Positions 15,259-47,653 of a stretch of DNA of 64,000 nt are shown piece after piece. Numbering within the stretch: position 1 is the first letter of the stretch; each line of letters starts with the position of its first letter. The stretch lies in assembly GCA_000004695.1 (NCBI GenBank), contig CM000155.2:896001-960000 (forward strand), written 5' to 3'. The position numbers and the translations under genes were made by a program. The notes below the pieces were generated by a model. That model did not search any database. It had not been told where the DNA came from and worked only from the letters and a program-made list of their open reading frames with translations. This DNA comes from Dictyostelium discoideum (taxonomy: Eukaryota).

Positions 15259-15329
<71 letters not shown>

Positions 15330-15794: not shown

Positions 15795-15882
15795 ATAAAT
15801 TAAAAAAAAAAAATATATATTCATTTATTTATTCATTCATTATTTAATTTTACACATTATTTTTTTTTTTTTATTTTTATTT

Positions 15883-15932
15883 TTAGTAAGCATAGATTCT
15901 AGTATGTCTTCTTGAATCGCAACTACTATTAC

Positions 15933-16007
<75 letters not shown>

Positions 16008-19090: not shown

Positions 19091-19703
19091 ATGAAAGAAG
19101 ATAAAATAAATAGAGTTTTAAATTGCAATTATAAAGAGTTTTTAGAAATATATAAAGATGAAAGTAGTCAAAATGATTATCATTTAAAAAGAGGCGATAT
19201 AAATATAAAATTTACAAATTGGGCACAACAGACAACAACATCATCATCATCATCATTATCAACTACAACACAAACTGTGAATGAAGAAAGAACTATTATA
19301 TTTCAAGCACCAATAAATGCACCACAATCTGTATTAAAAATTATTGGAAAAAATGCAACTACAATCAATGAAAAACAAAAGTTATCAATTAATCATAAAC
19401 AATCAAGTATACATATTCAAACTTTCTATCAACCAGATATTATGGGTGAATATTTTAGTGTTGAAACTGAATGGTTTCTTAACACAATCGACAATGAAAA
19501 ATGTTCATTAGAACTTTCAATTCGTGTAACTTTTAATATGACATTTGTTGGTAACCTCTTTGAAGTTTTCATTATTAAAGCTGCTTCAGAATCTGCTCTT
19601 CAATATGTTGATATTGTTGAAGAGTTTTTAATGAAATTAAATAAAGAAAAACAATTAAAACAACAACAACAATTATTACAACAGCAACAACAACAACAAA
19701 AAT

Positions 19704-19756
<53 letters not shown>

Positions 19757-20243
19757 CTACAACAACTACAACAACTACAACAACAACATAAAAAACAAAA
19801 TAAAAAAGGATTAAAGCAACAAAATAAAAATAAAAATAAAAATAATAATATTAATAATAATAATAATAATAATAATCAAATAGTTCAAAAGTTACCACAA
19901 GAACCATATGAAAATTGGACAGTAGATTGTAATGTTGATCAAGTAAAGAAAGATTTGAATGTACATTTAGATAATTTAAAATTAAATTCATTGAATGCGT
20001 CTCAAGGTTTATTAAAAGTAGAAATTTCAATATCAGAAATGAAATCTGAGCAACAATTACAAATACAACAATTACAATTACAACAGCAACAACACCAACT
20101 ATTACAACAGCAACAACAACAACAACATCAACAACAAAATGTAAATAATTCATCCTTAAACTCAACATCAACAAGTGGAGACTCATCTACATCATTTTTA
20201 TCACCTTATAACCTTGGTTTAACTTCAAATAGAATAAATCATC

Positions 20244-20322
<79 letters not shown>

Positions 20323-20366
20323 GCAACAATTACATATTTACCAACAGCAACAATTACATATATACC

Positions 20367-20402
<36 letters not shown>

Positions 20403-20505
20403 ATAATCATCAACAATTACAAATTTATCAAAAGCAACAACACCACCACCAACAATATCATATGCATAATCAACAACGGTTACAAATTGAAGGTAATAAT
20501 AATAA

Positions 20506-20580
<75 letters not shown>

Positions 20581-20881
20581 TAATAATATGGATATGAATA
20601 TGAACAATATAAATATATCAAACATTTTAACAGAGATAGAATATAATAATAGAGCATTAAAAGAACAAAGATTGGTTTCTGAAGAAAGGATTGAGGAAGA
20701 GATTGAATCAATCTCTCAATATTTCGATGATATGGTGAAGTTACAAGAAGAAAGTAAACCTTGGTTCCCATCTTTTATTAATATTTCTTCTGTAATTATT
20801 GCTTTAGCTGTAATTTTATCATTATTTTCAAAAAGACCTATAATTCAAAAACAATTATTAAATCAAAGAAATAAAATATAA
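19091..20881 (+). CDS. Tail-anchored poly-Q protein with a possible VASt/Aster-like lipid-transfer-type beta-rich domain
   Basis: 596-aa ORF. The N-terminal 200 aa (ERTIIFQAPINAPQSVLKII...YFSVETEWFLNTIDNEKCSLELSIRVTFNMTFVGNLFEVFIIKAASESALQYVDIVEEFL) have a strand-rich pattern reminiscent of VASt domains. Long CAA/CAG poly-Q runs follow, then a C-terminal TM (WFPSFINISSVIIALAVILSLFS). Confidence 0.45.
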
Positions 20882-27282: not shown

Positions 27283-28659
27283 ATGGAAAATGTAATTACA
27301 AATAATAATAAAGGATTACCAAAATCAATATTAAAATTTATACCAGAACCAATTCAACCATTATTTGAAAATCCATTTTTTTCAGCAGGTTTCGGATTGA
27401 TAGGTGTTGGTTCAATTTTAGCAATGGGTAGAAAAGGATTTCAACAAGCAATGATACAATCGAGAAGATATTTTTTTGTATCAGTAGAGGTACCAAGTAA
27501 AGATAAATCATTTCATTGGTTAATGGAATGGTTAGCAACTAAAAAGAATAAAAACACAAGACATGTTAGTGTTGAGACTACATTTCATCAACATGAATCT
27601 GGTGATATAGTATCAAGAATTAATTTTGTACCAAGTGTTGGTACACATTATGTATTTTATAGAGGTAGAGTTATAAAAGTTGAGCGTTCAAGAGAGAAGA
27701 ATGTAATAGATATGAATAGTGGTAATCTTTGGGAATCAATTACACTCACAACTTTAGGTACTGGTAGACAAGTTTTCCAAAATCTAATTGAAGAGGCAAA
27801 AGAGATGGCTTTAGAGAAAGAGGAGGGTAAAACTTTAATTTATACATCAATGGGCACCGATTGGAGAAGATTTGGCCACCCACGTAGAAAGAGACCCATT
27901 TCATCGGTCATTTTGGATAAAGGTAAATCGGAATTAATCATTCAAGATGTTAAGAAATTTTTAAATAATTCAGATTGGTACAATGATAGAGGTATTCCAT
28001 ATCGTCGTGGTTATCTTTTATATGGTCCACCAGGTACAGGTAAAAGTAGTTTTATCACTGCTTTAGCAGGTGAACTTCAATTAAGTATTTGTATACTAAA
28101 TCTTGCTGGTAAAAGTGTTAGTGACACTTCATTAAATCAATTATTAGCAACTGCACCACAAAGATCAATTATTTTATTAGAAGATATTGATTCTGCAATT
28201 CAAACTGGTAATCATGATTTATCAGCAAAAAGCAATTCTGCCAATGCACCTTCAATTTCATCAGGTGGATTACAATATCAAGGCTATTATGGCAATCCTT
28301 CAGTTAGTAGTGGTGGTTCTGCTTTAACTTTTAGTGGTTTATTAAATGCATTGGATGGTGTAGCCGCAAGTGAAGGACGTATTTTATTTATGACAACTAA
28401 TCATCTTGAAAAACTTGATAAAGTTTTAATTAGACCTGGTAGAGTTGATTTACAAATCGAAATTGGTTTATGTTCATCTTATCAAATGGAACAAATGTTT
28501 TTAAAATTTTATCCAACAGATTTCGATTTAGCGAAACAATTTGTTGAAAAACTTGAAAATTATAAATTTAGTCCTGCTCAACTTCAAGCTTACTTTATGA
28601 CTTATTCAAATAATTCAATTGAAGCAATTAATAATTTAAATGAATTAATAAAAAAATAA
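27283..28659 (+). CDS. bcs1l: Mitochondrial chaperone BCS1 (AAA-ATPase needed for Rieske Fe-S assembly into complex III)
   Basis: Single 458-aa ORF. It has an N-terminal TM/BCS1_N region, Walker A GPPGTGKSS, Walker B ILLEDID, and LNALDG...RILFMTTNH..LD.ALIRPGRVD. These are the characteristic BCS1 motifs. Confidence 0.85.
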   Translation: MENVITNNNKGLPKSILKFIPEPIQPLFENPFFSAGFGLIGVGSILAMGRKGFQQAMIQSRRYFFVSVEVPSKDKSFHWLMEWLATKKNKNTRHVSVETTFHQHESGDIVSRINFVPSVGTHYVFYRGRVIKVERSREKNVIDMNSGNLWESITLTTLGTGRQVFQNLIEEAKEMALEKEEGKTLIYTSMGTDWRRFGHPRRKRPISSVILDKGKSELIIQDVKKFLNNSDWYNDRGIPYRRGYLLYGPPGTGKSSFITALAGELQLSICILNLAGKSVSDTSLNQLLATAPQRSIILLEDIDSAIQTGNHDLSAKSNSANAPSISSGGLQYQGYYGNPSVSSGGSALTFSGLLNALDGVAASEGRILFMTTNHLEKLDKVLIRPGRVDLQIEIGLCSSYQMEQMFLKFYPTDFDLAKQFVEKLENYKFSPAQLQAYFMTYSNNSIEAINNLNELIKK

Positions 28660-29220
28660 TAAAATAAAATGAATGTAATCGTTCTATTTTATTTTTAGAA
28701 TTTAATTATATTCATTTTTTGTATTTGGTTTTTTTATTTTTAGGGAATATATTTTAAATAACTTTTATAAAATCAATATTCTCACAATTTTTCTTTTTTT
28801 TTTTTTTAATTTTTTTTTTTTTTTTTGAGTATTAATTCAAAAAAAAAATATATATATATATTTTATTAAATAATGGAATATATATATTTGATATACCAAT
28901 TGTTACCTATATTTGGTTATCAAGTTGTGTATAAAAATGAATAGCCTATCCATCTAAAAAGAGCTATAATTGGTGATCAAAACTTATTATTTTATTCCAC
29001 CCAATAAAACAAAATGATTTTATGGTTGTTAATTTTTTTTTTTTTTTTTTAAAAAACAATTGATTTTCATATTTTAATGATTGTCAATTTTATTGATTGT
29101 GTTTAGATTTTAAAATATTTTTTTTTTTTTTTTTGTTTTCTGTCTAAACACTTCAATTAAATATAAATTTATATCTTTGCTGTTTTCAATAAAAAAAGGA
29201 AGATTACCAAAAAAAAAAAA

Positions 29221-29438
29221 ATTATTATAAAATTGACTTTTTCTTTTTAAAAAAATTTATAAGAATAAAATGTGATTACAATAATACTATTATTTTTAAG
29301 AAATAAATTAAAAAAAAAAAAAAATAAAAAAAAAAAAAAAAAAATTATTATAAAATTGACTTTTTCTTTTTAAACAAATTTATTTATAAGAATAAAATGT
29401 GATTACAATAATATTATTATTTTTAAGAAATAAATTAT
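29221..29438. repeat. Tandem direct duplication, two copies of a unit of about 95 bp with a period of about 124 bp, in intergenic DNA
   Basis: 29221..29310 reads attattataaaattgactttttctttttaaaaaaatttataagaataaaatgtgattacaataatactattatttttaagaaataaatta. 29345..29438 repeats it with small differences (taaacaaatttattta, ataatatt). Confidence 0.8.
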
Positions 29439-30085
29439 AAAAAAAAAACTATAAAAAAAAAATAAAAAAAAAACAACCAATCGTTGTCTTGTATCTGTGA
29501 TTTCTTAAGATATTTGTTTTTATTGTTGACGTTATTGTTGTATGATGTTATATAGCGTCATGAACCATGCCCGGGTGAGGTTGAAAAAGATTTTGTTGTT
29601 GGTATGAAAATAAAAAAAAAAAATAAAAAAAATAATTGGGAATTGTTTTTTTTTTTTTTTTTTTTATAAATTAATTAATTCCACAAAAAAGTTTTTTCTC
29701 ATCGGTAAAATTTTCTTATCTATCGATTATCGTAATTTGATGTGACTCACGATTGAACAACAACCTTCGGTTTTTTTTTTTTTTTTTTTTTGTAAATACT
29801 TATTAAAAAAACGATTGTCAATTTTTTAGCAGATCAAGATTTTTCATTTGCAGATATAAGAATGATTCAAAAAAAAAAAAAAAAATCTTAATTTATTTAT
29901 TTTTAATTTTTTTTTTTTTTTTGTAAAATTAATTTTTTTTTTTTTTTTTTCTATAAATTTTCTTTACAAATGTTTTTTTTTTTTTTTTTCTTTAATAAAT
30001 TATTATTATTATTTTATTTATATAAGTATATATATAAAAAATAATTAATAAATTTATAAAAATATAAAAAAAAAAAAAAAAAAAA

Positions 30086-32115
30086 ATGAATAAATTATAT
30101 TTTTCAATTTATTTTATAATTTTATCAATTTTAGTTACTTTATCAAATGGTCAATTATTTCCAATTACTCCAGTCCATTCAGTAAATGTTACATTAATTG
30201 ATAATGCTTCTTCACTAATTAATGCATTCGAATTACATCCATACTCAACAGCCGACTCAAGCTGTAGCTCAAAATTTGAATTCCTTGTTGATGGCAATGG
30301 TGTTCCAATAGAATCCGTTGTTCTTTCTAAAGGTTGGCCACAAGAAAGATTAAGAGTCAGTGATTCAAAAATAGTATATTTATATTATGATTATAATGGT
30401 TTTGGTTCATATAATGTTACTATTAATATTAAATTAAAAGATACTCCATTAGTTCAATACCAATTAGAATTTTCATGCACTGGTAAGTAATAACATTTAT
30501 TAAAAAATAAAATAAAATAAAAATATATATATATATGTATTTACTAATATTTATTTACCAATAGAATTTGACTTAAGTAAAATTGAAATTAAATTTGCTC
30601 AAGAATATCCATTTTCTGTAGTCAACCAAAATTTTGCATCATGGGTTACTGTTAAAGGTTTTGATATTAAATCTACATCTTTATCAACCAGTGGTTCATC
30701 AGGTACTTTCGGTGCATATGGTATGTTTATTTGGAACACACAATATATTGTGGATCATGTATATGAAGATTGGAGTGTTACAATTTTATTTTATGGTGGT
30801 AAAACTTTAAATCTTACTACAAAATCATATTATTCTCAATGTATGTATTCTTTTTTTTTTTTTTTCAAAATATTATTAATATTTTATTTTTAAAAGGGTT
30901 ATTAATATTTAAAAAATTTTAATTTTTTATTTTTATTATTATTTTTTAGATGAAAATCAATTACCACCATTACCATATGAAACTAAATTCTTCCCACCAG
31001 ACATTCTTGATTCTGAACCATTTAATCCATTTGGATTTTATAGTTTCCCATTATCTAAATTTAAAATTAATACAACAATCTTTAGACCTTTCCAAGTTTT
31101 AAATGTTGTAAACTATGGTTCAATTTTATCATTCCCAACCAAAGGTATTAAAGGTGATATGGAATATAGTACCCTTTTTTTAAAAGTAACAGGTGAAAAC
31201 GTTAATGAAATAGATTTTACAATTATTAATCAAAATGGTCATAATCCACTTGTTAAAACTAATTTTACAATTGAATATAATAGTAAGTTTTATTATATAT
31301 ATATTTTTTTTATTATTATATTTTAAATAGTTTTTATTAATAATATATTTTCTTTTTATAGAATTCTTTTTCCCAAATTTATCAAATGTTCCAGTTAATC
31401 TTGAAGTTGAAAGTGATATGTTTTGTACATCATTTTCAAATAACTTTTTTAAATATACAAGTTATTTATATCAATTCGATACCAATTCTGTCGTAAAAGG
31501 TTTCCCATATGGTTTCTCTGGTGATAACAATAATTATAAAAATAATATTTGTTTTGAAAGAACACCACAAGCTACTTATATAAATTTTAGAACTGAAAAC
31601 AACTATGATGATTATAAAACTTTTAATGTTCCAGAATTACGTCGTAAGTTAACAAAAAAAAAAAAAAAAAAAAAAAAACTATTAAAGTCAAAATATTATT
31701 TTTTTTTAAATATTAATTTTATAAATAATTTTATTATTATTATAGCATATGAATTTTCACCAATAAAAGTTGAATCATATAATATTTTAACAGTTTCACC
31801 AACAAAATTCCTTTTAACAATTAATATTTCTTCAAGTGTTGGTATTAATGCAGTACAATTTTTATCAACAGTTTCAAAATCAAGTTATGAATTTTTAATT
31901 AGTGGTGATAAATATAATGGTACTTATCAAGCTGTTATCGATGTTTATAATACTCCATCATTTAGAGATGAAAATGGTAATTGGTTAAGACTTTATGATG
32001 GTTCAATCGTTTCTAGTGATCCAATAGTTTATTTTAAATTACCATCAATTCCAAGTATGTATAAAATTTTAAAAAATTTATAAATTTGTTTATTTATTTT
32101 AAACTAATTAAATAA

Positions 32116-32153
<38 letters not shown>

Positions 32154-34902
32154 CAATTTAGGATCAGTCGGCTATAATTCATTTTCAAATATTACATTTT
32201 TATATGATAATATTAATATGACAAGGGATCAAGATTTTTATAATATTGCATATTTAGAAAATGATGAAATTCCACGTGATTTACCATTTTCATTAATTTC
32301 TTTAGATCCAGTAACTTATTCTTATTTAACTTCAGTTAGATTAATTAATAATATTATGTACCCATTCACTTTTGATCCAACCATTAATAAATTCACAAGT
32401 AAATTTGTTATTCCAGCAAATACTGCATTCGATAAGATTTCATTTGCAATTATTGGTGGTTTATCAACAGAATTTTATTATTCAGGTTTTACAATTAATA
32501 ATTCACCAGCTTTCGATAATGAAGGTCCATTATTTAGTGAATTCTACAAAGTAAATGAAAATACTACTTATTCCTCTTTAGGTTATCCAAAAACTTCTGG
32601 TTGGAGATTTAGAATCACTGATAAATACAATGGTTTCAGAAATGGTTTTATTAAAGCTATGGGTTCAGTTGATAGTACAATTATTAAATTAAACTTCACT
32701 GTCCACGATAGACTTAATGGTGATAAACACGATGGTTTATATGAACTTTTACTCGCTTTAGTACCAGAACAATGTATCACACAACAATATACTATCACTC
32801 ACGTTGAACTTTATGATGACAATAACATTAGTTCAATTTTCAAACTTTATTCACCAGATTATTACTTAAAGAATCCATTCATTAATATTTATGCTCAAGG
32901 TTTAGAAGTTACTACAATCTCTACATTCTGTAGTGAACCAATTATTGACGTTTTACCAACTCTTTCCCAATTCAGAGTTTACAATCAATCTGTTGATGTT
33001 GGTTCTGGTAATAGAAGAGTTTCATTTAGTTTTGAAGCATCATCAGATAGTGGTATGAAAAGATCACAAGCACCAATTATTTATCTCACAACAAATTTAT
33101 TTGAAATCGTTGAATGTGAAACAAAATTTATTATGATTACACCAATATCCAATCTTTACTCTTGTTCAGTTGATCTTCCATTCTCATTTGGTTATCCAGG
33201 TAAATTATTTTTGTCAGTTTATGGTTTAATCAATAATGGTGGTAAATATGGTGGTGCTAGTACAAAGGATTTACGTGATCTCGGTTTCCAATATTCTATT
33301 GATACTCAATTCACAAATTATACTCCAGTTATTACTCAAAATGATAATATTTTATCCGTTCATTCAGATTTAGTATTCTTTGGTTATGGTTTCAATAAAG
33401 TTGTTGATGTAATTGTTAGATATAAAAATCAAGAACCAGTTCATATTGCACCAACTCAAATCTTTGGTTCAACTGCAATTAAACTTCAAATTACTCCAAC
33501 TGAATATCAATTTACTATTCAAGTTGTAAATAGTGAAGGTATTTATTCAAATGAATATAAAATTAATCCAATAATTTGGAGATATCAATTTAATCCAACT
33601 GAAACACCAACTGAAACTCCAACTGAAACTCCAACTCAAACACCAACTCAAACACCAACTGAAACTCCAACCCAAACTCCAACTGAAACTCCAACTGAAA
33701 CTCCAACTGAAACTCCAACTGAAACTCCAACTGAAACTCCAACTGAAACTCCAACTGAAACTCCAACTGAAACTCCAACTCAAACTCCAACTGAAACTCC
33801 AACTGAAACTCCAACTCAAACTCCAACTGAAACTCCAACCCAAACCCCAACACAAACACCAACACCAACACCAAACCCAGGTAATTGTAATGTTAGTGTT
33901 ACCCTAAAGGTTACTTCTCAATGGGTTGAAAATAATCAAAACTTTATACAAGTTGAGGCAACTATTTTCAATTATGGTCAATCAGAAATCACTGGTTTTT
34001 CATTCCAATTATTTAATATTATCAGTATTTGGAATGTTGATCAAACATCATTCAATAGCTACAGTCTTCCAATTTGGTTACCAGCCATTCAAGTTGGTTC
34101 ATCATTCAGTTTTGGTTATATTCAAAAAACTGATACTGTTGTCCCACTCTCCTCCCAATCAGTTGTATGTCAAGAAATTCCAACCCCATCCCCAACTCCA
34201 TCACCATCCCCATGTATGATTAATGTTTCTCAAAGTATCGTTAATTCATGGAGAGAAAATACTCAAGACTTTATTCAAGTTGAAGTAAACCTTAAAAACA
34301 TTGGTCAAAATACCGTTTACCAATTCTCATTCGAAATATTTGATCTTGTTAACATTTGGGGCGTTGAATTATTATCAAATAATACTTATCAACTCCCAAG
34401 TTGGGTATATAGTATCCCAGTTGGTTCATCTCACAATTTTGGTTATATCCAAAAATCAAACCATCTTTTACCAATTTATTCACAATTACCAACTTGTCAA
34501 GTAACTCCAACTCCAACACCAACTCAAACTCCAACTCAAACTCCAACTGAAACCCCAACTCCAACCGAAACTCCAACCGAAACTCCAACTCAAACTCCAA
34601 CTCAAACACCAACTCAATCACCAATTCCAAGACCAATAACTTGTTCAAAACTTGATGATGTTCTTAATTTCAATAGCACAGAAACTATTTACTGTAAAGG
34701 TAGAGGTCCAACCTACTGTATTGATGGCTATGGTTCAGAATGTGAAACCAACGATGTTGATGGAAGAATTAAATGTACAACAAAGAGCAATTTCATGAGC
34801 TGTAAGGGTGATCATTTAGTTTGTAAATCAAACTATCTTACATGTAAAGTCAATATTTCTGAAGGTACACCATTCCATGTTCACGATTCTTCTTTACAAT
34901 AA
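30086..34902 (+). CDS. Large secreted glycoprotein with two tandem CBM49-like carbohydrate (cellulose)-binding modules, Pro-Thr (PTETPTQT)n linkers and a C-terminal Cys-rich tail. Six exons: 30086..30482, 30565..30840, 30950..31282, 31362..31643, 31746..32054, 32162..34902
   Basis: Signal peptide MNKLYFSIYFIILSILVTLSNG. Five introns (GTAAGT or GTATGT donors, TAG acceptors) are all phase 1, and each internal exon is a multiple of 3 nt. The two ~95-aa modules are C.V...V.SW.EN.Q.FIQVE....N.GQ......F......IW.V........Y.LP.W......G.S..FGYI.K and match the CBM49 pattern (..SW...GQ.YYQ.EV.I.N.......L..........WG.......Y.FPSW...L..G.S..F.YI). (ACT-CCA/ACA-CCA) repeats encode mucin-like PT linkers at 33590..33870 and 34500..34620. 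Confidence 0.55.
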
Positions 34903-35228
34903 AATATTTTAAATAACCTATCAAAGAAATAAATAAATTTTAAAATTTCTTTTTTAAATTATCTCTTTCCAAATAATTTTTTTTTTTTTCTTTCTTTACT
35001 AATTTTATTTATTTATTTTTAAAATAATATAATAATAAAAAAAAAGTTTTTAAGAAACTACAACACTAACCAAGCTTATATTTAAATTCTTTAAGTTTAA
35101 TTGAATGAATATCATTACAATTTATTACAATTTTAATTTTTCTTTTTCTTTTTCTCTAAAAAAAAAAAAAAAAAAATAATATTATTTAAAATATTATTTT
35201 TTTTTATATATTTATATATGTTTAAATA

Positions 35229-36154
35229 TTAATTTTGAATAAAGGATTCAACCATAGCCAAAGCAGCGACAGGTGCTTCTCTTGGTGCCATATGAGATGC
35301 TCCAAGAAGAACTTGCATTGTAAGATTATCATATGATTGTGAATAACCAGAAATTGTATTACCATTAATATATAAAATTTTTCTTGGTGAGTTATTAAAT
35401 TCTTGATTGTATTTCCATTTAAGTTGAGAAGTCCATTCAGTACTACCTAAGAAATTACAAATCCAATCATAGTTTCTATTTTATTTAATTTTTATTTTTT
35501 TTTTTTTAGGAAATGTTGTATATTAGTATTTATAAATACTAATTTTTAATGATGATGAATTTGTATATAGGTGGTGTAATAAATAAAATAAAATAAAATA
35601 AATAAAAAAACATACCCATTATAAACTAAAACTTTATAATTTTCTAATAAAGTTGGAATATAATTAATTGGTGTATTAAACCAATCTCTAATGATAGCAC
35701 TATATGGTTGAGTACTACAAACATTCCAAGTAGAATTTGGTAAAACTCCAAATGATTGTTTGGTTGATGCTAAATTAAGGTAATCAATGATAGCTGTAAA
35801 GTTATAACAAAGTGGTTCATTTGGATAACATGTCTTTGATACATCATATACATTGAAATTACCTGCATACTCTTGAACGATATCCATAATGTTATTACAA
35901 ATTTGAGTGGTCATATTATAATCACCTGAATCTATTGCTTGTTGACATGATTCATATAATCCTTCAGTTTCCTTTAATGCATTAATATCAAGCATACCAT
36001 GTGCATATGCAAATGGTCCAAGTGATCCATATTGAATGTATGGGTCAACCATACCATTACCAATTGCAAGACCTTTAAGATTAATTGTTGCTAATCCTAA
36101 ATTCTTTTGATAAATATAATATGAAAAACTTGGTACATAATGACCCTATAAAAA

Positions 36155-36190
<36 letters not shown>

Positions 36191-36834
36191 TAGTGTTAAA
36201 TATACTATTTATGTATTATTTTCACTATATATAGTGGCGGTAGTGGTGATGGTGGTAAATAAATAACTTACTGCATATGATTCACCAAAAATATATAATG
36301 GTAATTTAGAATATTTTGGATATTTTGAAAGGAATTGAGTTAAGAATGAATATAAATTTTCAGAAATCTCTGTTTCTGTAGTACTATAACCATCACTATC
36401 AACAACATAACTGAAACCGGCACCTAATGGAGAATCTACATATAAAACATTTGCAACCATATTCCATGAATTTGGATTTTCTGATAAAGTTAAATTATCA
36501 TTTACAAAATATGGTCCATTTTCATAAACTATTAAAAAAAAAAAAAAAAAAAATATAAAAAAAAAAGAATTTATTAGTATATGCACGTGTAACTTTACAA
36601 TAAAAAAAAACACTTACAAGCTGCCATTAAAGATGAACAACCTGGACCACCTGTAAGCCAAAGAATTAATGGATCAGTTGATGGAGAATTTTGTGATTCA
36701 TAAAATAAATAAAACAAATTTGCATTTGTTGTTTCATTAACATTGAAATAACCACTTAATTGTAAAGTTGGTGTACTATTTGATACATTTATTACAAAAA
36801 TTATTGAAATAATAATAAATAATAATTTCATCAT
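35229..36834 (-). CDS. Serine carboxypeptidase (peptidase S10). Four exons: 36834..36618, 36528..36272, 36145..35616, 35475..35229
   Basis: The spliced product reads [20 protein letters not shown]...[17 protein letters not shown]|[12 protein letters not shown]...[15 protein letters not shown]...[10 protein letters not shown]|[15 protein letters not shown]...LVYNG|[20 protein letters not shown]...[26 protein letters not shown]. All S10 hallmarks are present: GGPGCSS, the GESYAG catalytic-Ser motif, DWICN and the catalytic His in GASHM. Donors GTAAGT at 36617, GTAAGT at 36271 and GTATGT at 35615. Acceptors TAG at 36531..36529, 36148..36146 and 35478..35476. Confidence 0.75.
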
Positions 36835-36899
36835 TTTTGTTCGTTTCTTTGTTGAATGTTTGGATTAAAAAAATGAAAATTCCGTTTTTTTGTTTTATT

Positions 36900-36943
<44 letters not shown>

Positions 36944-37441
36944 TGCTATTCCAATTTTATTTTTATTTTTATTTTTATTTTGAAAAATAAAATGAATTTT
37001 CATTTGCATTTTTTTTTTTTTTCTTTATTCTTTTATACTTTTTTTATCTTTAATTTTCTTTGCTAATTAGCAAACCCAGTTTCGTTTTTATAATAAGAAT
37101 TATTAAAAAAAAAAAAAAAAAAAAAATAAGAATAATAAAAAAAAAAAAAAAATAAAAATAAAAATAATAAAATAAAAAAAAAAAGAAAATTGATGAAACC
37201 ATTCTGTTTTTTTTTTTTTTTTTTTTTTTAAGATTTAAATATTATAAAAAATAATAAGAAATTATTATAAAAAAGTTAATAAATATTTAATTTAAGTTTA
37301 TTATATACTTTTTTTTTTTTTGCACAAGAAGAAAAAAAAGAAGGGAGTGTCACTAAAAAAATGTTAAAAAATTAATTTAGATAAAAATAACAATTATTTT
37401 TATTGAAAAATTTTTTATTTTATTATTAAAAATTTAATAAA

Positions 37442-37902
37442 CTATTTTTTTAATTGTTTTTTTGGAAGGTCTATGTACAAAGTTCCATAAATATTCTAAA
37501 AATAAAAAGTGTAAGTTTTTTTTTATTTTTTTATTTTTTTTATTTTTTTAAATAATAGAGATTATTTACATATATATCTTGTAAAAGAGAAATAGTAATG
37601 GCACTAATATTATTCATATCATTAAAAAAATTATTTGGATTATCTTGATATTGCAAAATAGTTTGGAAAATTGTTGTTAAAATGTGAGTGATATTTCTTG
37701 ACATTGTACCATGCTTTTCTCCATCAGGTTTTAAATGGGAAATAATAAATTTTATAATTATTGCAATTACATGAATTATAGATTTCCATTCATCATTAAC
37801 ATTAGAATGAAGAATAGTTTTAATAATAATTATTCCTATATTCTCCCATACTTCAATTCCATCCATTTTTTTTTTTTTTTTTAAAAAAAATTTAACCAAC
37901 AA
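37442..37902 (-). CDS. Small hypothetical protein, possibly 2 exons: 37902..37570 (or starting at MDG 37866), 37495..37442
   Basis: ORF MDGIEVWENIGIIIIKTILHSNVNDEWKSIIHVIAIIIKF...SLLQDIY, then a GTAAAT donor at 37569. Acceptor TAG at 37498..37496 precedes NIYGTLYIDLPKKQLKK*. No confident homology. Confidence 0.3.
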
Positions 37903-38203
37903 ATAAAAAAAATAAAAAATAAAAAAATAAAATATAAAAGGTTTATTTATTTATTTATTTATTTATAAATTAAATTACAATTTTATTTTTTCTTTAATTT
38001 TTTAATTATTAAAATCGATGGTAATTTTTTTTTTATTTTTAAATAAATCACACCCACTTCAAAGTTTATTTTTAATTTAAGTTTTCAAAAGGGGGGGGGG
38101 GGGTTAAAGAATATATTTTAAAATTAAAATTTAGATAAAAAACATAAAATGTATTATTGTAGTGGTTTATATACTTTATTTTTTATTATTATTTTTATTT
38201 TGA

Positions 38204-38718
38204 TTATCTTATTAATTGATAATGAACACGTTTTGGTTTTGAACAATATTTTTTGTATAAATATAATGATATTGAACCAATTATTAATAAAATGAAAATT
38301 GATACAATTATTACAATTGGGATTGTCCAATTCATATGGTTATTATTATTGTTATTATTATTATTTGAAGTATTATTAATAATAATTGTTGTTGTTGTAT
38401 TTGGTGAGGTTGAACCATTAATTAATAAACAATAAGGATTGATAGTATTATCAATTAGAATATAACCATTATCACAATAGCATATATACAATCGATCATT
38501 TACCATTGAATTTGAATCTAAACTCCAATCAGAAAAAAATGAATAATTACAATTTGCACTTCCACAAACTTTTTCTGCAATTGTTCCAAAACATTGATCA
38601 ATGTTACAACTTTTACCACTTGATGATAATTTAAAACCACTTTCACAAAAACAATTATTAAATACTTGATTTGTATAATTACATTTTGCGGTACCACACT
38701 CACTACAAATTTCATTTC
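38204..38718 (-). CDS. EGF-like single-pass membrane protein, paralog A (3' exon only; the 5' exons could not be found and may be degenerate)
   Basis: Frame open from acceptor ccaaaag|GA at 38720/38718 to TAA at 38204. It encodes NEICSECGTAKCNYTNQVFNNCFCESGFKLSSSGKSCNIDQCFGTIAEKVCGSANC...YICYCDNGYILIDNTINPYCL (EGF-like C.C..GY spacing), then an N-rich stalk, a TM (TIPIVIIVSIFILLIIGSISLYLY) and a short basic tail. It is homologous to the last exon of paralog B and enters in the same phase (1). Confidence 0.4.
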
Positions 38719-38725
38719 CTTTTGG

Positions 38726-38763
<38 letters not shown>

Positions 38764-38768
38764 ACCCC

Positions 38769-38809
<41 letters not shown>

Positions 38810-39132
38810 TTTTATCCTTCCCTAGATTATTGTTAATTAAAATAAATAAAATTATGATATAGTATATTATCATCTTTATAAAATCCATGAATAAAAGAAA
38901 AAAAAAAATTAAAAATTAAAAAAAAAAAAAAAAAGTAAAAAAAATAAAAAAAAAAAAAATTAAAAATATTAATAATAAAAATTGTTTAAAAAGGTGTCAA
39001 TTAAATTATTTATTTATTTTTTTTTGAAAAAACACTAAATAAATTATTTTTTTATTTTTTTTTTATTTTTTTTTATTATAGAATTATAATTCCAATATTT
39101 TTTTATTTTATATATTTATTTATTTATTTTAT

Positions 39133-40330
39133 TTATAACAATGGTTGAGAATCTAATGAATTATCATCTTCATCATAATAATAATTATTATTATTTGTTT
39201 TTGTTGTAATTGTTTTAGATTTTTTATATTTAAAAAATTTAACATAAATAAACATTGAGATACAAAATATAAATAAAAGACCAATTACTGAAACCATGAT
39301 TGAGACTGGTATTTTCCATTTTGAAGAATCTGGATTATCTACACAACTTACATCACCATTATCTGAAATGAATAAATGAGTTTTTTCATTTAAACAAACA
39401 CAATTATCATCTTGACCATCATTTTTGCAATCAGCTGAACCACACATTGTAGAATTTGCACATTCACCTTCTTTTTGACAGTATTTAATAATTTCATTAT
39501 CAATTTTTTTATTTTGTAAAGTGAAACCTTCATCACAATAACAATAATAAAGTATGTTATAATCAATTCCATTCTCTATAAAGTGATTTGTAGTTAAATT
39601 ACATTTTGCATAACCACAATCTATTTGAAAATTTTTAATATAACATGTATCAATTTCACATTGCGTACCATTGAATTTATAACCTTCTTTACAAGTACAA
39701 TTATAACCTTTTACTATATTATCAGTATTTTCACATTCTCCATTCCCACCACATACATTTAAATAACAATAATCTTTATCTATTTAAAAATAAATATAAA
39801 ATAAAATAAAATAAGTTTTTAAAATAAAATAATAAAATAATAATTAAATAATTTAATAATAAAAATACTTACATTGACATAAGGTACCATAAAAACCCAA
39901 TGGACATATATCACTACCATAATCCCATGTAAAAACATTAATTGAACCATTCAAACAATTAAATGATGTTGTTGCTGAAGTATGATTTAATTGTATTGAA
40001 GTTGAATTGAAGATTGTGGTTGTTGTGATTAAATTTGGTGAATTATTTAGTGAACAAGTGAAAATATTTAAAAAATGATTTTCATTTGTAAATGATAAAA
40101 TCATTGAATTAAATTCAATTGAATTTTCACCACAATTACCAATTTGATAGAATTGAATTGAATTATCTTGTTTTAATTTACATGAACCCAATGTTAAACT
40201 TTTTTTGAAAATTTTTTGATATCCCCATGATAAAGTAATCCAATCAATTGGGCATGGGGAATATATTTTTGAGTTTCCATAAATTTGATTATATTCATAA
40301 AAATTTTTATTTTTATTTAAACCCTTTTGG

Positions 40331-40368
<38 letters not shown>

Positions 40369-40568
40369 TTGTCAACAAAAAAAAAAAAAAAAATTAAAAA
40401 AAAGTAATAATAAAAAAAGTAATAATTAATATTTACCAATCCACTACCAAAATAAATATTACCTTTGTGACAAATATTTGATAATGAATAATATTCATTT
40501 GGGCATGAATATTCTATTGCAGTTGCATAATTAAAAATAATTAAAACTATTAAAATAAATAACTTCAT
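39133..40568 (-). CDS. EGF-like single-pass membrane protein, paralog B. Three exons: 40568..40437, 40323..39873, 39779..39133
   Basis: Exon 1 is a signal peptide MKLFILIVLIIFNYATA + IEYSCPNEYYSLSNICHKGNIYFGSGL, ending at a GTAAAT donor at 40436. Exon 2 follows (T)n-CCAAAAG|GGT (acceptor at 40325..40324) and encodes KIYSPCPIDW...GSCKLKQDNSIQFYQIGNCGEN...FTWDYGSDICPLGFYGTLCQ. GTAAGT donor at 39872 (phase 1). Exon 3 follows TAG at 39782..39780 and encodes repeated EGF-like units (CGGNGECENTDNIVKGYNCTCKEGYKFNGTQCEIDTC...YYCYCDEGFTLQN...), a TM (IPVSIMVSVIGLLFIFCISMFIYV) and the tail KFFKYKKSK...DSQPLL. Confidence 0.55.
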
Positions 40569-40888
40569 TTTTTTTTTTGAAGAAATAATAATAATAATAA
40601 TAATAATTTACAAAAAAAAAACAATAAAATAAGAAAAAAATTAACTAAAAAAAAAAAAAAAAAAATAAGAAAAAAAAATACAAAAATGGCCAAAAACGAA
40701 TAAAAATAAAATATATCAAAAATATAAAAAAAAAAAAAATTTAAAGATATCTAAATAAAAATATAATATGAAATAAATAAAAAAATAAAAATAAAAACTA
40801 CTACCTATCTAAATGAATATTTAATTTAAATATTTCTTTTTTTTTTATTTTTTATTTTTTTTTTATTTTTTTTTTTTCCTATTTTTAT

Positions 40889-41463
40889 TTATTGTACAAC
40901 TACATAAATTTTAGTTCCAATTGCTGTGACTATAAATGTTTGTTCTGAAAATGAAACTATATAAATAGGAATTGTTTGTTGTTGTTGTTGTTGTTGTTAT
41001 TGTTATAATTAGTAAAATTGAACTCCTATTGGTATATATATAACGACTAAAAATAATACTAAATAAACAATTGAATGAAAATAATAATAATAATAAATAC
41101 CTGTCATTCTTTTAAATTCTTGATTATTTGAAGATGTAATTTTATTGACGTCGTGTAACATTGAAATAATGGTGCTTGCAAATTCTTTATTATTATAGAA
41201 ACTTTCTTGTAAAATACCTGAAGCCTATATTATTATCACAATCATCATTATCATGATTTATTATGAATATTATAATTTAAAACATATAAGAATATGTCCC
41301 GATAAATGAAATTAAGTTAGTAGAAAAAAAAAAAAAAAAAAAAAAAACCCCTAAATATAAGAAAGTTGTGTGTGTAGGATATTATACTTACACTTGAAAT
41401 TGATCCATCTTGTTCAATAGTTAATGAACCTTTAAAATCTTTTAAAATATCTGGTGCGCTCAT
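40889..41463 (-). CDS. lamtor4: Ragulator complex protein LAMTOR4 homolog (roadblock fold). Three small exons: 41463..41392, 41224..41101, 40956..40889. Absent from the ORF track
   Basis: Spliced product (87 aa): MSAPDILKDFKGSLTIEQDGSISS|ASGILQESFYNNKEFASTIISMLHDVNKITSSNNQEFKRMT|GVSFSEQTFIVTAIGTKIYVVVQ. It aligns with human LAMTOR4 ([43 protein letters not shown]...[28 protein letters not shown]). Donor GTAAGT at 41391, acceptor TAG at 41227..41225. Donor GTATTT at 41100 (phase 1), acceptor TAG at 40959..40957. Confidence 0.55.
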
Positions 41464-41559
41464 TGTATTTATATATATATTATGTTGGAAATGTTATTTT
41501 GATTTTAATTTATTTGTTTTTTTTTTTTTTTATGAAAGTTCGATTGAAAAAAAAAAAAA

Positions 41560-41591
<32 letters not shown>

Positions 41592-41758
41592 TTTATTTTT
41601 ATTTTTATTTTTTTTATTTTTTATATTTTTTATTTTTTATTTCACATATTGTGTAACCAAAAAAAAAACAAAATAAAAATAAGAAAAATAAAAAAGAAAT
41701 AAACAAATAAATTTTAAACTTTTGCACTTTTATTTATTTTTTTTTTTTTTTTTTCTAA

Positions 41759-42000
41759 TTAATTGAATTGAATTTTTAATTTATCATCAAAAAGATTATC
41801 ATTATTTGATATTGATTTGAAATTATAATTTAATAAAGAAATGATATTTAAAATTTGTTGATTTTTAATATTTGAAATTATTAATGGTTGAAGATTTAAA
41901 TTAAATTTTTTAATTTGATTTGTATTTTCCATTTTAGTAATTAAATTTGAAATTTCTATATTATATAATTTCAATGAATCAATAAATAAAATTTTATTAC

Positions 42001-42072
<72 letters not shown>

Positions 42073-44485
42073 TATTATAATTATTAATTTTTAATTTTGA
42101 AAACCATAAATTATCTCTATCATGATAATAGTTTTTACTAATATTATCATCTTCACTTAATTTAATTATTGAATAAAAAATTAAATTAATTAAAAGATGA
42201 TGTTTTATTTCTTGAGAATAATTTTCATTTAATAAAATTAAATTCATATAAAATAAATCTCTAAATTTACAAGAATTGTAAATTATATTTAATATATTAT
42301 CACAAACCCATTTTGAATCATTTTCAATAACATAACATAATTTTTTAGAAATTTGATAAGGCGAACCAAATTCATTAAAAAATTCTTTTGAATTGAAATT
42401 AACCACACTTGAAGGTTTTAAATTACATTCTAAAAATAAATAATTTAATATACTTTCTTTAATATTATAAAAATTATTTAATAATTTAGAAATATTATAA
42501 TTTTGTTCTATTAAAATTGATGATACTGATGATACTGATGATATTGATGATGGCACTGATGATGATACTGATGATGATGTTGGTTTAAAAAATAATTTTA
42601 TAAAATTTAAATCATCAATATAAAAATAATATCTAGATTCTAAATTTTTTAAAATTAAATAATGATAAATTAATGGATTATTAATTAAAAATACTTGACT
42701 AATTACATGTGAACCAATAAGACTAGGTTGTAAATCACTATAGTTTAAAGGTTTACCACCACTACTTATAATACTATCAATTATTGTTTTAAAAATTATA
42801 AAACCTTGATAACCTTCATTTTTTAAATTTGGAATATATCTTATTAAATTTCTAAGTTGGAATGCCGATGGCCATAATGATTTAAAATTACTAAGTATAT
42901 AATTAAATATTAATAAATTTGAAGTGTTAACAGAGGTTTCTAAAATTGTTATTAACAAATTTGAATTTTTAAATAATGAAATTGATTTTTCAATAAATAA
43001 ATGCAAAGATTTTAAATCATTAAAAAATAAATCCAAATATTTATAAGTACCAGTATTCATTGAAAAATTTGTAAATTGAATAGTTTTATAATTTTCAAAA
43101 TTATTAAAAAGGAATTCAACAATTGATAATTTTGAATCGAAATGAATTGGTTTTAAAGAAACTTTATCATTTAATGTTGGTTCATTTGAAATGAAATCTA
43201 ATACAAATTTCAAATAATTACAATCAAATAATTTCTTTGTAATATTAAAAAATATTAAATCCCAATTTAATTTATGAAATTCAATTTTATTATTATTTTC
43301 AATTAAAAATTTAAATTCTTGAAATGTTGGTGAATAATTAAATCTTAATAATGAAATTATAATATTATCATTATTATAATTTATTAAATTAAAATTAAAA
43401 TTAATAATTTCTAAATTACTATTAATTATTAAACGACTGATATCTTTAGTATTGTTAACGGAAGTACTACTTGTTAAATGGAAACCATTAATTCTAAATT
43501 GATTTTGTGATGAATTTGAATTTTTCCAAAAATAATTTAAAATTTGGAAATCCAAAAACTTTGTATTTTGTTGTTTAATGTAAGGTAATGGATAATTTCC
43601 ATTGAATTGTTTTGATAGGTAATCAGATTTTAAAATGATTTTAGCCAATTCAAGATTAGAGTGAATGAAAGAAATACCAATTAAAAGACAACTTAAATTA
43701 TCTACAATTTTATCATAGGGTGCTGTGAATGGTAGTTGAAATTTAACTAAATGAATTTCGAGATCAATTAAATAATTTACTAAATAATTTAAATAAACCA
43801 AGTTATTACTTTTTAATGATTTAATTAAAACTTCAATCGCTTGAACAAATGTGAGTTCAAAATTGTGATATTTAATTTCATTTTTGAAAATTTCTAAATT
43901 ATTATCACAATCGATTGAAGTTTTATAACCATCTTTATTAATCATTGGATCGCCACCCCATCTATAAAATTTTGAATATTTTATTGGTTCTCTAAATTCA
44001 TAAATTTTTTCATTCATTAAGAATTTATAAATTTCTAAATTACCACTTTTTGCTGAACTTTTTAAAACAAATTTTTTAAATATTTGAAATTGAAATTTTG
44101 AATTATTATAAACTTTTAAAAATCTATTAAATCCTAATTCTTTATAAGATAATAGTGCTTTAAAATCTTTTTTATCATTAAATTGGAACATTGATACAAA
44201 TTTCCAATACTTTTCTCTATTAAATATTACAACATTATAATAAAATTCGAATAAATAATCAAATAATTTAAATAATTTTTTTGATAATAATTCTTTAATT
44301 GAAAAATCATATGATCTTTTTAATTCTTTTTTAATTTCATAAATTTTATAAAATTCATTTTCATTATTATCATCATCATCATCTAAATATTCAAATCTAA
44401 CAAATTTAAATATTTTATTTGAAATTACAATATTATTAAAAACTTTTTTATATAATATATAATTATTATTATTGTTATTATTCAT
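41759..44485 (-). CDS. Large N/I/K-rich hypothetical protein (Dictyostelium-type low complexity; no recognised domain)
   Basis: Continuous 908-aa ORF from ATG 44485. It contains poly-N coded by (ATT)n at 42000..42070 and S/V-rich repeats (SSVSSSVPSSISSVSSVSS). The family was not recognised. Confidence 0.45.
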
Positions 44486-44720
44486 TTTATTTATAATGTT
44501 TAAAATAAAAAAAATAAAAAAATAAAAAAATTTGATAAAAATCTATTTGAGTGAAAAAAAAAAAAAAAAAAAAAAAAATCTAAAAAAAAAAAAATAAGAA
44601 ATAAATAAGAAAAAAAAAAAAAAGATAAAACAATTATCTTCTATAAATTTTTTAATTTTATTTAATTTTATTTTATTATTTTTTTTTTATTATTATTATT
44701 ATTTATTATTATTATTATTA

Positions 44721-45593
44721 TTAAGTTCTATAATGAGAATTTGCTTTAACATAATCAACTGTTAAATCACAAGTCCACATAGTATAATTTTGATTACCAT
44801 TATTTAAATCAACAATTATACTAATATCTTTATTTGATAATAATTTGGCAGCTTTTTCATCATCTTTTGGAGTTGGTTGACCATCTTTAAGGAATTGCAT
44901 TGCAATGAGAGGATCATTCTTTTGACCGATACCAATATTATCACCATAACCAGATGCGAACCACATTGAAATATTTGAAGGTACAACACCATCAGCACCA
45001 CTATAACCAACAGCGGCTAAAACTCTACCCCAATTTGCATCTTCACCATACATTGCTGTCTTTACCAATGAAGAGGTTGCAATTGAATTTGCAATGATTT
45101 TACCATCCTTTTCGGTTTTAGCACCTCTAACTACCACACTGATGAACTTGGTTGCACCTTCAGCATCTCTGACGATCATTTGAGCCAATTCAGTTGCACA
45201 TTCTCTCATTGCTTTCTCTAATAATAAATACTCTTTGGAATTGGTTGAATCAATTCTCTTGTTACCTGCCAAACCATTTGAAAATACTGCAACCGTATCA
45301 TTGGTACTCATATCACCATCAACATTAATACTATTGAATGAATAATCAATTGAATGTTTTAATGCACTCTTTAATGCTTCCTCACTAATATCTGCATCTG
45401 TACAAAGTGTACATAACATTGTTGCCATATTTGGATGAATCATACCTGCTCCTTTGCAAATACCTGTAATATTAACTTGTTTACCTTGAATTTCAATTTG
45501 TTTTTGAACTAATTTTGGTACTTTATCTGTTGTCATAATTGCTTTTGCTGCCTTTGAAAAAAAAATAAAAAAAAATAAAAAAAATTATTAATA

Positions 45594-45646
<53 letters not shown>

Positions 45647-46210
45647 AATTAAATACATACTGATAACCAATCATCTTTTAAATTTTCAGATGCTTTTGTA
45701 ATACCAAGTTCAACTTTTTTCATATCTAATTGTTGACCAATAATACCAGTTGACTTTAATAATAAAAATAAAAGTTAATAATTAATTTATAAATTTTAAA
45801 TATATATAAATATTTACTTACCATTACTAATGATTGTTGTTTTGCATTTACCAATTTTGAAGATAAAAAAGACATTGTTTGAGCATTTTTTTCACCTTCT
45901 GGACCTGTACAAGCATTAGCACCACCACTATTTATAATTAAAGATTGGAAACCAGTGTTTTTATGTTTCTCTATTAATGACTTGCTTAATAAAACTGGTG
46001 CTGCTTTAACTTTATTCTCTGTAAATACTGCTGCAACATTACATTCTTTCTCTGAATGAATTAAACAAATATCTAATGCTCCACTCTTTTTTAATCCGCA
46101 TGCATATGTACCAGTTTTAAATCCTTTTGGTGATGTTGTTGTCTTTTTTTATTTTTTTTTTTTTTTTATTTTTTTTTTTTTTTAATCCCAAATAAAAAAA
46201 AATAAAAAAA

Positions 46211-46241
<31 letters not shown>

Positions 46242-46478
46242 ATTTTTATTTTATTATTGTTATTATTTTTGATAATAAATAAGTTTTATTATTATTTTTA
46301 TTATATATTTTAAAATAAAATTTACAAAATAATTTTTTGAAATAAAATAAATAAAATAAAATAAAATAAAAATAAATGATTTTCAACAATTTACATTTTT
46401 TATAGTACTATAATGTCTTAAAAAAGAAGTAGTTGTTGAGTTTTGAAATAATTTTTTATTAACTATATTTGAAAACAT
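44721..46478 (-). CDS. argJ: Arginine biosynthesis bifunctional protein ArgJ (glutamate N-acetyltransferase / ornithine acetyltransferase), mitochondrial. Four exons: 46478..46395, 46142..45822, 45753..45661, 45551..44721
   Basis: Exon 1 is a presequence-like MFSNIVNKKLFQNSTTTSFLRHYSTIKN, with a GTAAAT donor at 46394. Exon 2 encodes TTTSPKGFKTGTYACGLKKSGALDICLIHSEKECNVAAVFTENKVKAAPV...GANACTGPEG...SLVM, with a GTAAGT donor at 45821. Exon 3 encodes STGVIGQQLDMKKVELGITKASENLKDDWLS, with a GTATGT donor at 45660. Exon 4 encodes AAKAIMTTDKVPK...GMIHPNMATMLCTLCTDA (the ATML autoproteolytic site) ...ISVVVRGAKTE... Acceptors AAG at 46145..46143, AAG at 45756..45754 and AAG at 45554..45552. Intron 3 contains a (TA)22 repeat. 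Confidence 0.75.
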
Positions 46479-46592
46479 GTTTTTTTTTTTTTTTTTTTTT
46501 ATATTATATTATTGTTTTTATTTTTTTTTTTTTTTTATTTTTTTTTTTTTTTTTTATATGAAAACTTGAAGTTATGTGTATTGAATTAATAA

Positions 46593-46626
<34 letters not shown>

Positions 46627-47088
46627 TGAAAAAAAAAAAAAGTAAAAAATAAAAAAAAAAAAAAAAAAGATTAGTGGAAGTGCGATAAAAAAAATATCAA
46701 TGGACCAGAAAAGCCAATTTTATTTTTTTTTTATTTTTTTTTTATTTTTTTTTATTTTTTTTTATATAAGAAAATAAAAATATAAAAAAATAAAAAAATT
46801 TAAAAAAATTTAAAAAAATCTTCAATTATTTGTCACTTGTGCAATAAGCCGTGTGCGGCTTCATCGCCGAAATTTTTTCAAAAACCAAATTTTTTTTTTT
46901 ACTTTTGTTTATACAAATATTTCCATTAAATTTTTAATTTGGTTTTTAATTTTTTTATTCCAAACCAATAATAAAATAAAATTAAAAAAAAAAAAAAAAT
47001 AATAGAAAAAATAAAAAATAAAAATATAATCACAAAAATTACAATCATTTGAATCGCAATCACAAATACCGACATCAAAAAATTTGTT

Positions 47089-47123
<35 letters not shown>

Positions 47124-47653
47124 TTAATAAAAAAAAAAATATAAAATAAAATAATCAACTTATAATTTTAAGGTTATTATTTTTTGGTAAAAGCCGAAAA
47201 TGAAAAAAAAAATAAAAAATAAAAAATTATTGTTTATTTCACAGAAAAAAAATTGCATGATCATTTTTTTTTTTTTAGAAAAGTGAAAAAGACAATAAAA
47301 AAATGAAAAAATAAAAAAATAAAAATAAAAAAAAACAAATTAAAATAATTAAAATAATTAATTACAAAAAATGTTAAATTTGCATTTTTTTTAATTTTGT
47401 AAGATTTACCTAAAAAATCAACATTGGCCTCCCAAAAATTAAATAATTTTCAAAAAAAAAAAAAAATAATAATTAAAAAAAATTAAAATTTATTTTTTTA
47501 TTTTTTTTTTTTCGAGCAATAAAATTTTTTTTTTTTTATTTTTTTTTTAATAGATGTGTGACATCATACCATTTTATTTTTCATTTCACTTTTTTTTGTA
47601 AAAATTTGTATATATAAAAAAAAAAATCAAACAAAATAATAATATAAATAAAA

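Follow-up and report, generated by a model that had tools for sequence, protein, structure and literature searches.

The window analyzed here is a stretch of 64,000 nucleotides (nt) of Dictyostelium discoideum DNA from chromosome 6, and the locus under study occupies its positions 30086–34902 on the (+) strand. This locus is a real, functional gene of six exons. By its position it is probably gerD, and it very likely encodes a secreted, presumably heavily glycosylated protein of 1445 amino acids (aa), in which a rod of immunoglobulin (Ig)-like domains of the ComC type would be held on cellulose by twin CBM49 modules. The gene has already been annotated, and it falls into two known kinds, the ComC family and the wall proteins with CBM49. 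The searchable literature yielded no mention of its particular architecture, of the family-wide arrangement of one domain per phase-1 exon or of what appears to be a repeated exchange of the anchor.

The ComC-Type Ectodomain

A Pfam scan of the 1445-aa protein detected two CBM49 modules together with DUF7035, DUF7034 and, in exon 5, DUF7743, while EGF-like DUF7949 and the ComC supersandwich (PF22933) were not found. An exhaustive HMMER search with residues 534–1010 returned 289 relatives, dictyostelid in every case whose source was checked. They are mostly about 1350–1420 aa long, match at the same offset and form the 'EGF-like domain-containing' ComC family, whose tail consists of EGF-like DUF7949, the ComC_SSD supersandwich and a C-terminal transmembrane segment. 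The order of DUF7743, DUF7035, DUF7034 and a DUF8390-like domain at about residues 530–1010 is that of the ComC ectodomain. Every N-terminal exon module matches the collinear position in one or more paralogs, and residues 1–1010 therefore represent a complete ComC-type ectodomain. A word-indexed protein search with the same residues gave one distant match, and sequence searches of the PDB gave nothing useful.

Models made with AlphaFold2 (AF2) were all-beta, both for the paralog P0080 (predicted local distance difference test, pLDDT, of 75) and for residues 534–1013 of exon 6 (pLDDT of about 85–97). In Foldseek, both matched arrays of Ig, FN3, MG and IPT domains, such as thick-filament Ig arrays, a mastigoneme protein, LILRB/PirB, ICAM-5, plexin, complement C5 and alpha-2-macroglobulin. 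Residues 23–1010 are thus a rod of about nine Ig-like beta-sandwich domains that is homologous to the ectodomain of the ComC family. Profile–profile comparison of the nine modules related only exon 5 (DUF7743) to DUF7035 (probability 83%, E 8.5e-6). By this method no further pair was related at the sequence level, and blastp agreed. Since only this one pair is detectably related, a recent tandem duplication of exons is unsupported, and the domains are old and diverged. The Ig block was also seen in a quite different architecture, as P0001 (EukProt gene3652-4550_t, of amoebozoan type) combines N-terminal ankyrin repeats with DUF7743, DUF7035 and DUF7034.

Neither a transmembrane segment nor a glycosylphosphatidylinositol anchor was found in the protein. 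Its only hydrophobic segment is the signal-peptide-like N-terminus and its C-terminus is hydrophilic, whereas the paralogs carry a transmembrane segment 20–45 residues from the end. The window contains no second member of the family and no relics of an EGF or transmembrane tail. An earlier note, made from the letters of the window, had described the protein as modular and secreted, which agrees with the N-terminus and the lack of a further hydrophobic segment. It had also spoken of beta-rich repeats of unknown type; the first half of this description stands, and the second gives way to Ig-like domains of the ComC family.

The Cellulose-Binding Region

Both CBM49 modules match PF09478 well above its cut-off of 23.4 bits (81.1 bits for module a and 96.3 bits for module b), each over profile positions 1–79 of 80. 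Each module is 95 aa long with a Cys at both ends (C1108/C1202 and C1217/C1311), and in both of them Trp residues stand at module positions 13, 49 and 64, a spacing of 36 and 15. In the Acanthamoeba lectin Luke-2, a disulfide joins the start and the end of each CBM49-like jelly-roll, and mutation to Ala showed that W35, W73 and W88 are needed for cellulose binding (PMC11423589). At the level of the sequence, the Trp spacing and the terminal Cys of the present modules match the Luke-2 features that were shown to bind cellulose (PMC11423589). The Luke lectins also share the signal peptide, the two Cys-closed modules, the three aromatics at the same spacing and the low-complexity spacers of hydroxy amino acids (PMC11423589), but they consist of the modules alone, whereas the present protein adds an Ig-like array of 1000 aa and a C-terminal domain with eight Cys.

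At 33594–33863, the DNA that codes for the PT(E/Q)T linker is made up of 22.5 copies of a 12-nt unit. The antisense open reading frame (ORF) at 33547–33855 translates to SWSFSWS... and is an artefact of this repeat. The eight Cys of the C-terminal domain are at positions 1360, 1377, 1385, 1393, 1404, 1413, 1420 and 1427. The domain had no match in Pfam or the PDB, and a word-indexed search with the C-terminal region gave low-complexity matches to the PT linker only and none after the linker had been removed. The tandem Cys-bracketed modules of CBM49 type, the PT linkers and the dismissal of the antisense ORFs as products of the PT repeat had all been proposed in the earlier note and are confirmed here, while its C-terminal domain of 12 Cys has to be corrected to one of eight.

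Gene Model and Splicing

The window is very AT-rich, and the gene was spliced by hand using GTAAGT or GTATGT donors and (T/A)AG acceptors. The spliced ORF of 4338 nt encodes the 1445 aa with no internal stop, and all five introns run from GT to AG, have a GC content of 6–10% and lie in phase 1 (Table 1). When the region was scanned blindly for AT-rich introns with GT..AG borders between open frames, the same five introns emerged and, in addition, one in-frame alternative acceptor for intron 4 at 31769. This acceptor lies 24 nt downstream of the regular one and its use would delete eight residues; intron 4 is itself open in frame, so that its retention would add 34 residues without truncation. 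In eukaryotes, about 25–30% of introns are in phase 1, and against this background the chance that five of five introns fall in phase 1 is P ~0.002. The other genes of the window contain too few reliable introns to provide a local baseline. Re-splicing and the blind scan reproduced exactly the coordinates, the six exons, the exon sizes and the all-phase-1 introns that had been read by eye from the same DNA, and the symmetric 1-1, domain-sized exons claimed at that stage are upheld by the splice model, by the intron map of the family and by the model of P0080.

Another assembly of D. discoideum (GCA_054883475.1) carries, between BCS1 and the S10 peptidase, a gene with an annotated product of 1445 aa, and its DNA differs from the window solely in the poly-T of intron 5, which is 6 nt shorter. 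The syntenic ortholog in D. citrinum is annotated at 1449 aa, equal to the projected splice, for which the exons measure 397, 276, 330, 282, 309 and 2756 nt and the ORF of 1449 aa is intact. All five D. citrinum introns occur at the same sites, in phase 1 and with GT..AG borders, although their lengths are different (135, 189, 110, 84 and 81 nt) and they align poorly with those of the window. Identity between the two species ranges from 70 to 91% per module and reaches 91% in the 8-Cys domain, and the ortholog retains all six Trp and all Cys. The ratio of nonsynonymous to synonymous substitution rates (dN/dS) is 0.36 for the whole protein, 0.44 for the Ig array, 0.14 for CBM49 module b and 0.20 for the 8-Cys domain. 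These values indicate purifying selection on the gene, which is strongest toward the C-terminal end.

Phase-1 Introns across the ComC Family

Eight paralog proteins from D. discoideum, D. firmibasis, D. purpureum and Heterostelium album were placed on their genomic loci by exact spliced matching. It was found that 68 of the 72 introns at these eight loci are in phase 1. The four exceptions are a doubtful first intron of 45 nt, an intron displaced by one base, for which the lengths of the exons compensate, and two long 'introns' of Heterostelium. The displaced intron follows residue 444 of P0006 (locus L008) in phase 2, with flanking exons of 346 and 332 nt that jointly keep the frame, and represents either a one-base slide or a mis-called splice site. 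The two long ones, of 670 and 785 nt, are the only non-phase-1 'introns' of PPL_11382, a 3928-aa product of Heterostelium album (locus L006, GL290995.1, gene 501–16076) that appears to consist of three ComC-like genes in tandem which the annotation has merged; both lie between complete repeats of the domain series.

In the family alignment, the shared intron positions correspond to about residues 19, 132, 224, 335, 429, 532, 648 and 791 of the present protein and to a site just after the last Ig domain. Positions 648 and 791 are intron-free here and coincide with the Pfam borders of DUF7035 and DUF7034 (648/650 and 790/798). Introns that are kept at these two residues in other members have been lost from the present gene, which has retained five ancestral ones, and six of the domains of the protein are each bounded by a phase-1 intron. 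In the model of P0080, the introns map to the signal-peptide end and to the inter-domain linkers of low pLDDT, and Heterostelium keeps the phase-1 intron just after the last Ig domain. As the positions are shared between Dictyostelium and Heterostelium, the layout of one domain per 1-1 exon predates their split. The all-phase-1 layout is inherited from the ancestor of the ComC family and is not special to the present gene.

Exon 6 holds both CBM49 modules as well as the junction that leads to them, and no introns flank these parts, so an exon-shuffling origin of these modules is without support. Of the features that Patthy-type reasoning asks for, symmetric phase-1 exons with borders at domain borders were found, and a module that occurs in unrelated genes between introns of the same phase was not.

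Several members of the family stand in tandem head-to-tail pairs, with a second 1137-aa CBM49-bearing copy upstream in L001 and paralogs of 1368 and 1379 aa upstream in L002 and L008, respectively. The ComC family seems to grow by local duplication.

Probable Exchange of the Membrane Anchor

The present protein is collinear with the ComC family over residues 1–1010, with up to 38% identity, and has the same domain order, Cys pairs and phase-1 intron positions. It differs in that EGF-like DUF7949, the supersandwich and the C-terminal transmembrane segment are missing, and the PT linkers, the two CBM49 modules and the 8-Cys domain stand in place of this tail. A comparable arrangement, a ComC-type ectodomain followed by CBM49 at the C-terminal end, was found in P0080 (AX4 XP_646514.1; Q55CG7 and P0159 belong to the same 1137-aa tandem pair on chromosome 1) and in P0068 of D. 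firmibasis. These proteins likewise have no transmembrane segment and introns in phase 1 throughout, but they contain only one CBM49 and have neither a long PT repeat nor an 8-Cys domain. Their identity to the present protein is only about 25% and they sit on a distant branch, so that the fusion seems to be a separate one. In a neighbor-joining tree of the ectodomains, the present protein groups with the EGF-bearing transmembrane paralogs and not with P0080, and the smallest clade that holds both contained at least 48 of the 106 taxa across 50 bootstraps. This placement, from what is a crude tree, suggests at least two replacements of the membrane anchor by a cellulose anchor.

Probable Identity and Expression

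The upstream neighbor (ORF 27283–28659) is BCS1-B, an exact match to XP_629907.1 of strain AX4, and downstream lies a serine carboxypeptidase S10 gene on the (-) strand at about 35.2–36.6 kb. This peptidase is XP_629909.1 / DDB_G0291912, and argJ, which is also in the window, is DDB_G0291916 (PMC12821622 supplement). The annotation of GCA_054883475.1 shows a single gene in the interval from BCS1-B to the S10 peptidase, and the accession between theirs, XP_629908.1, is DDB_G0291856, the 'germination protein' gerD. The present gene is therefore probably gerD. DDB_G0292054, another CBM49 protein of chromosome 6, was considered and rejected, as its accession is about 110 records away. Proteome values for gerD are +3.70 in the fruiting body, +3.49 in vegetative cells and -3.07 at culmination, and they apply to the present gene only if the positional identity holds. 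A literature search on gerD or DDB_G0291856 found no study. The protein had been guessed to be a cellulose-binding component of the spore coat or matrix, which fits the probable identity with gerD, a protein enriched in fruiting bodies.

Features of the Locus and Its Surroundings

Table 1. Features of the gene at 30086–34902, in window positions.
Feature	Position	Strand	Basis or remark
Start codon and predicted signal peptide, aa 1–22, MNKLYFSIYFIILSILVTLSNG	30086..30151	+	Sequence; putative cleavage site; sole hydrophobic segment of the protein
Exon 1, 397 nt: signal peptide and Ig-like domain 1 (aa 23–132, Cys60/Cys131)	30086..30482	+	Collinear with P0002 residues 4–121
Intron 1, 82 nt, GT..AG, GC 10%, phase 1	30483..30564	+	Same position in paralogs and D. 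citrinum
Exon 2, 276 nt: domain 2 (aa 133–224)	30565..30840	+	Splice model, paralog collinearity
Intron 2, 109 nt, phase 1	30841..30949	+	Splice model, blind scan, paralogs, D. citrinum
Exon 3, 333 nt: domain 3 (aa 225–335)	30950..31282	+	Match to P0007 residues 227–335
Intron 3, 79 nt, phase 1	31283..31361	+	Splice model, blind scan, paralogs, D. citrinum
Exon 4, 282 nt: domain 4 (aa 336–429, Cys357/Cys399)	31362..31643	+	Splice model, paralog collinearity
Intron 4, 102 nt, phase 1	31644..31745	+	Splice model, blind scan, D. citrinum
Exon 5, 309 nt: domain 5 = DUF7743 (aa 430–532)	31746..32054	+	PF24893, 36.8 bits, cut-off 27
Intron 5, 107 nt, phase 1	32055..32161	+	Splice model, D. citrinum
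Exon 6, 2741 nt including stop	32162..34902	+	Splice model
First part of exon 6: Ig-like domain 6 (aa 533–648)	32162..32508	+	Paralog collinearity; phase-1 intron at its end in paralogs, missing here
DUF7035 (aa 650–790, Cys737/Cys789)	32512..32934	+	PF23034, 111 bits; AF2 pLDDT ~90
DUF7034 (aa 798–917, Cys851/Cys867)	32956..33315	+	PF23033, 121 bits; AF2 model
Last Ig/IPT-like domain (aa 921–1010), equivalent of the paralogs' DUF8390	33325..33594	+	Paralog matches, AF2 and Foldseek
PT(E/Q)T linker 1 (aa 1011–1105), 12-nt unit x22.5	33595..33879	+	Repeat analysis
CBM49 module a (C1108–C1202; W1120, W1156, W1171)	33886..34170	+	PF09478, 81.1 bits
CBM49 module b (C1217–C1311; W1229, W1265, W1280)	34213..34497	+	PF09478, 96.3 bits; dN/dS 0.14
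PT linker 2 (aa 1312–1359)	34498..34641	+	Repeat analysis
C-terminal 8-Cys domain (aa 1360–1445) and stop	34642..34902	+	91% identical in D. citrinum; dN/dS 0.20

Elsewhere in the window, a multi-exon gene on the (-) strand at 37540–40436 has candidate introns in phase 0 and phase 1 and a product with Cys and many N-glycosylation sites (ORF 39853–40191) that had no match in Pfam. The ORFs at 52346–52720 and 19091–20881 consist of simple repeats (SLERSLE... and long polyQ/polyN) as is typical of D. discoideum, and are mirrored by artefact ORFs on the other strand. When the D. dimigraforme locus (L010) was compared with window 28660–48143, a protein kinase gene was found to adjoin BCS1 where gerD and the S10 peptidase would be expected; what separates BCS1 from the kinase in the window is missing from this place or has moved.

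Proposed Function and Alternatives

The most probable role of the gene product can be outlined as follows. The signal peptide would route the protein into the secretory pathway, where the PT linkers may become O-glycosylated and serve as stiff spacers. Each CBM49 would bind crystalline cellulose through three Trp arranged as a strip, with a gain in avidity from the tandem pair, so that the protein would be tethered to a cellulose wall instead of the plasma membrane. Given the gene name and the abundance in fruiting bodies, this wall is most likely that of the spore. The tethered protein would then present its ComC-type Ig array for protein–protein contacts.

Several points weigh against this proposal. 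The cellulose binding, the glycosylation, the localization and the partner of the Ig array are all predicted, and the CBM49 modules and the 8-Cys domain were modeled at a pLDDT below 50; because confidence in the CBM49 part of the model is low, the planar Trp array can only be inferred. The splice model was derived from sequence, comparative conservation and automated annotation, and the identity with gerD from neighboring accession numbers. The Ig array is fairly fast-evolving (its dN/dS is the 0.44 given above) and its role may be loosely constrained. Furthermore, D. dimigraforme has no ortholog at the syntenic site beside BCS1, where no gerD-like sequence was detected within 10 kb.

The alternative that fares best, although we consider it unlikely, is that the protein belongs to the matrix of the stalk tube or slime sheath and is made by prestalk or stalk cells, rather than acting in spores or germination. 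Some 30 secreted proteins with CBM49 build up during late development and have been linked to the sheath, the stalk and the spore walls (PMC12821622), several marker genes of stalk and 'somatic' cells encode CBM49 proteins (PMC9117722), and the identity with gerD is positional only. However, if the gene is gerD, the low value at culmination and the high values in the fruiting body and in vegetative cells misfit a protein of the sheath or early stalk. The TETP-type repeat, a hallmark of the '270' family of spore germination, also argues against a stalk protein.

Somewhat less likely still is a protein whose main role is that of a decoy or ligand, either soluble or bound to the wall, in cell–cell communication of the ComC type, with the CBM49 cassette merely limiting its diffusion. 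The grouping of its ectodomain with the membrane-anchored, EGF-bearing paralogs and not with the other CBM49-bearing paralog would suit such a role, as would the aggregation and communication phenotype of comC mutants; yet no ectodomain of the ComC family has a known binding partner, and the most constrained parts of the protein are CBM49 module b and the 8-Cys domain, not the Ig array. Finally, it is highly improbable that the all-phase-1 pattern arose by chance or through the choice of splice sites in a gene model that is wrong in detail: intron 4 does have an alternative in-frame acceptor and the model comes from sequence, comparison and annotation, but D. citrinum has the same sites and phases despite its different intron lengths, the product lengths agree in two independent annotations, and phase 1 prevails at shared positions across the eight paralog loci.

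Relation to Known Systems

A secreted Ig rod tethered to the spore wall, the reading preferred here, invites comparison with two further systems. The first is the spore-germination '270' family, which is reported to be defined by a Thr-Glu-Thr-Pro repeat (Giorda et al. 1990) and which includes celA and celB. The former is a GH9 cellulase and the latter a small binding protein, and neither is known to carry a ComC-type ectodomain. The present protein resembles this family in its (PTET/PTQT)n from a 12-nt unit, its cellulose-binding modules and its probable expression in spores or at germination.

The second is found in animals, where the presence of one domain in each phase-1 exon usually counts as a signature of extracellular proteins. 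Metazoan Ig/FN3 arrays (NCAM, contactins, fibronectin and titin) also devote one symmetric phase-1 exon to each beta-sandwich, and arrays of this type are the best Foldseek matches of the ComC-type models. Sequence homology to them is not detectable, however, and the present lineage is amoebozoan. The dictyostelid pattern may have arisen by internal duplication in one family and not by shuffling between genes.

A more far-reaching interpretation, offered as a speculation with low odds of being right, regards the ComC family as the amoebozoan counterpart of the class 1-1 exon modularity of metazoans. The Ig array would have been built, with a phase-1 exon for every domain, before Dictyostelium and Heterostelium split, and the C-terminal anchor would have been exchanged more than once, from membrane to cellulose, by recombination at the phase-1 intron after the last Ig domain. 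On these terms, gerD would be the ectodomain of a communication receptor placed on the cellulose wall of the spore, with a part in spore–spore or spore–amoeba recognition at germination.

D. discoideum has dozens of cellulose-binding wall proteins, and the present gene adds one more. The ComC family, a large group of dictyostelid surface proteins that adheres strictly to one Ig-like domain per phase-1 exon, could be used to test whether modularity at the level of exons accompanied the independent multicellularity of the social amoebae. The ectodomain exists in a form with a membrane anchor and in one with a cellulose tether, apparently as the outcome of separate fusions, which suggests a simple route by which a cell-surface receptor may become a component of the extracellular matrix.

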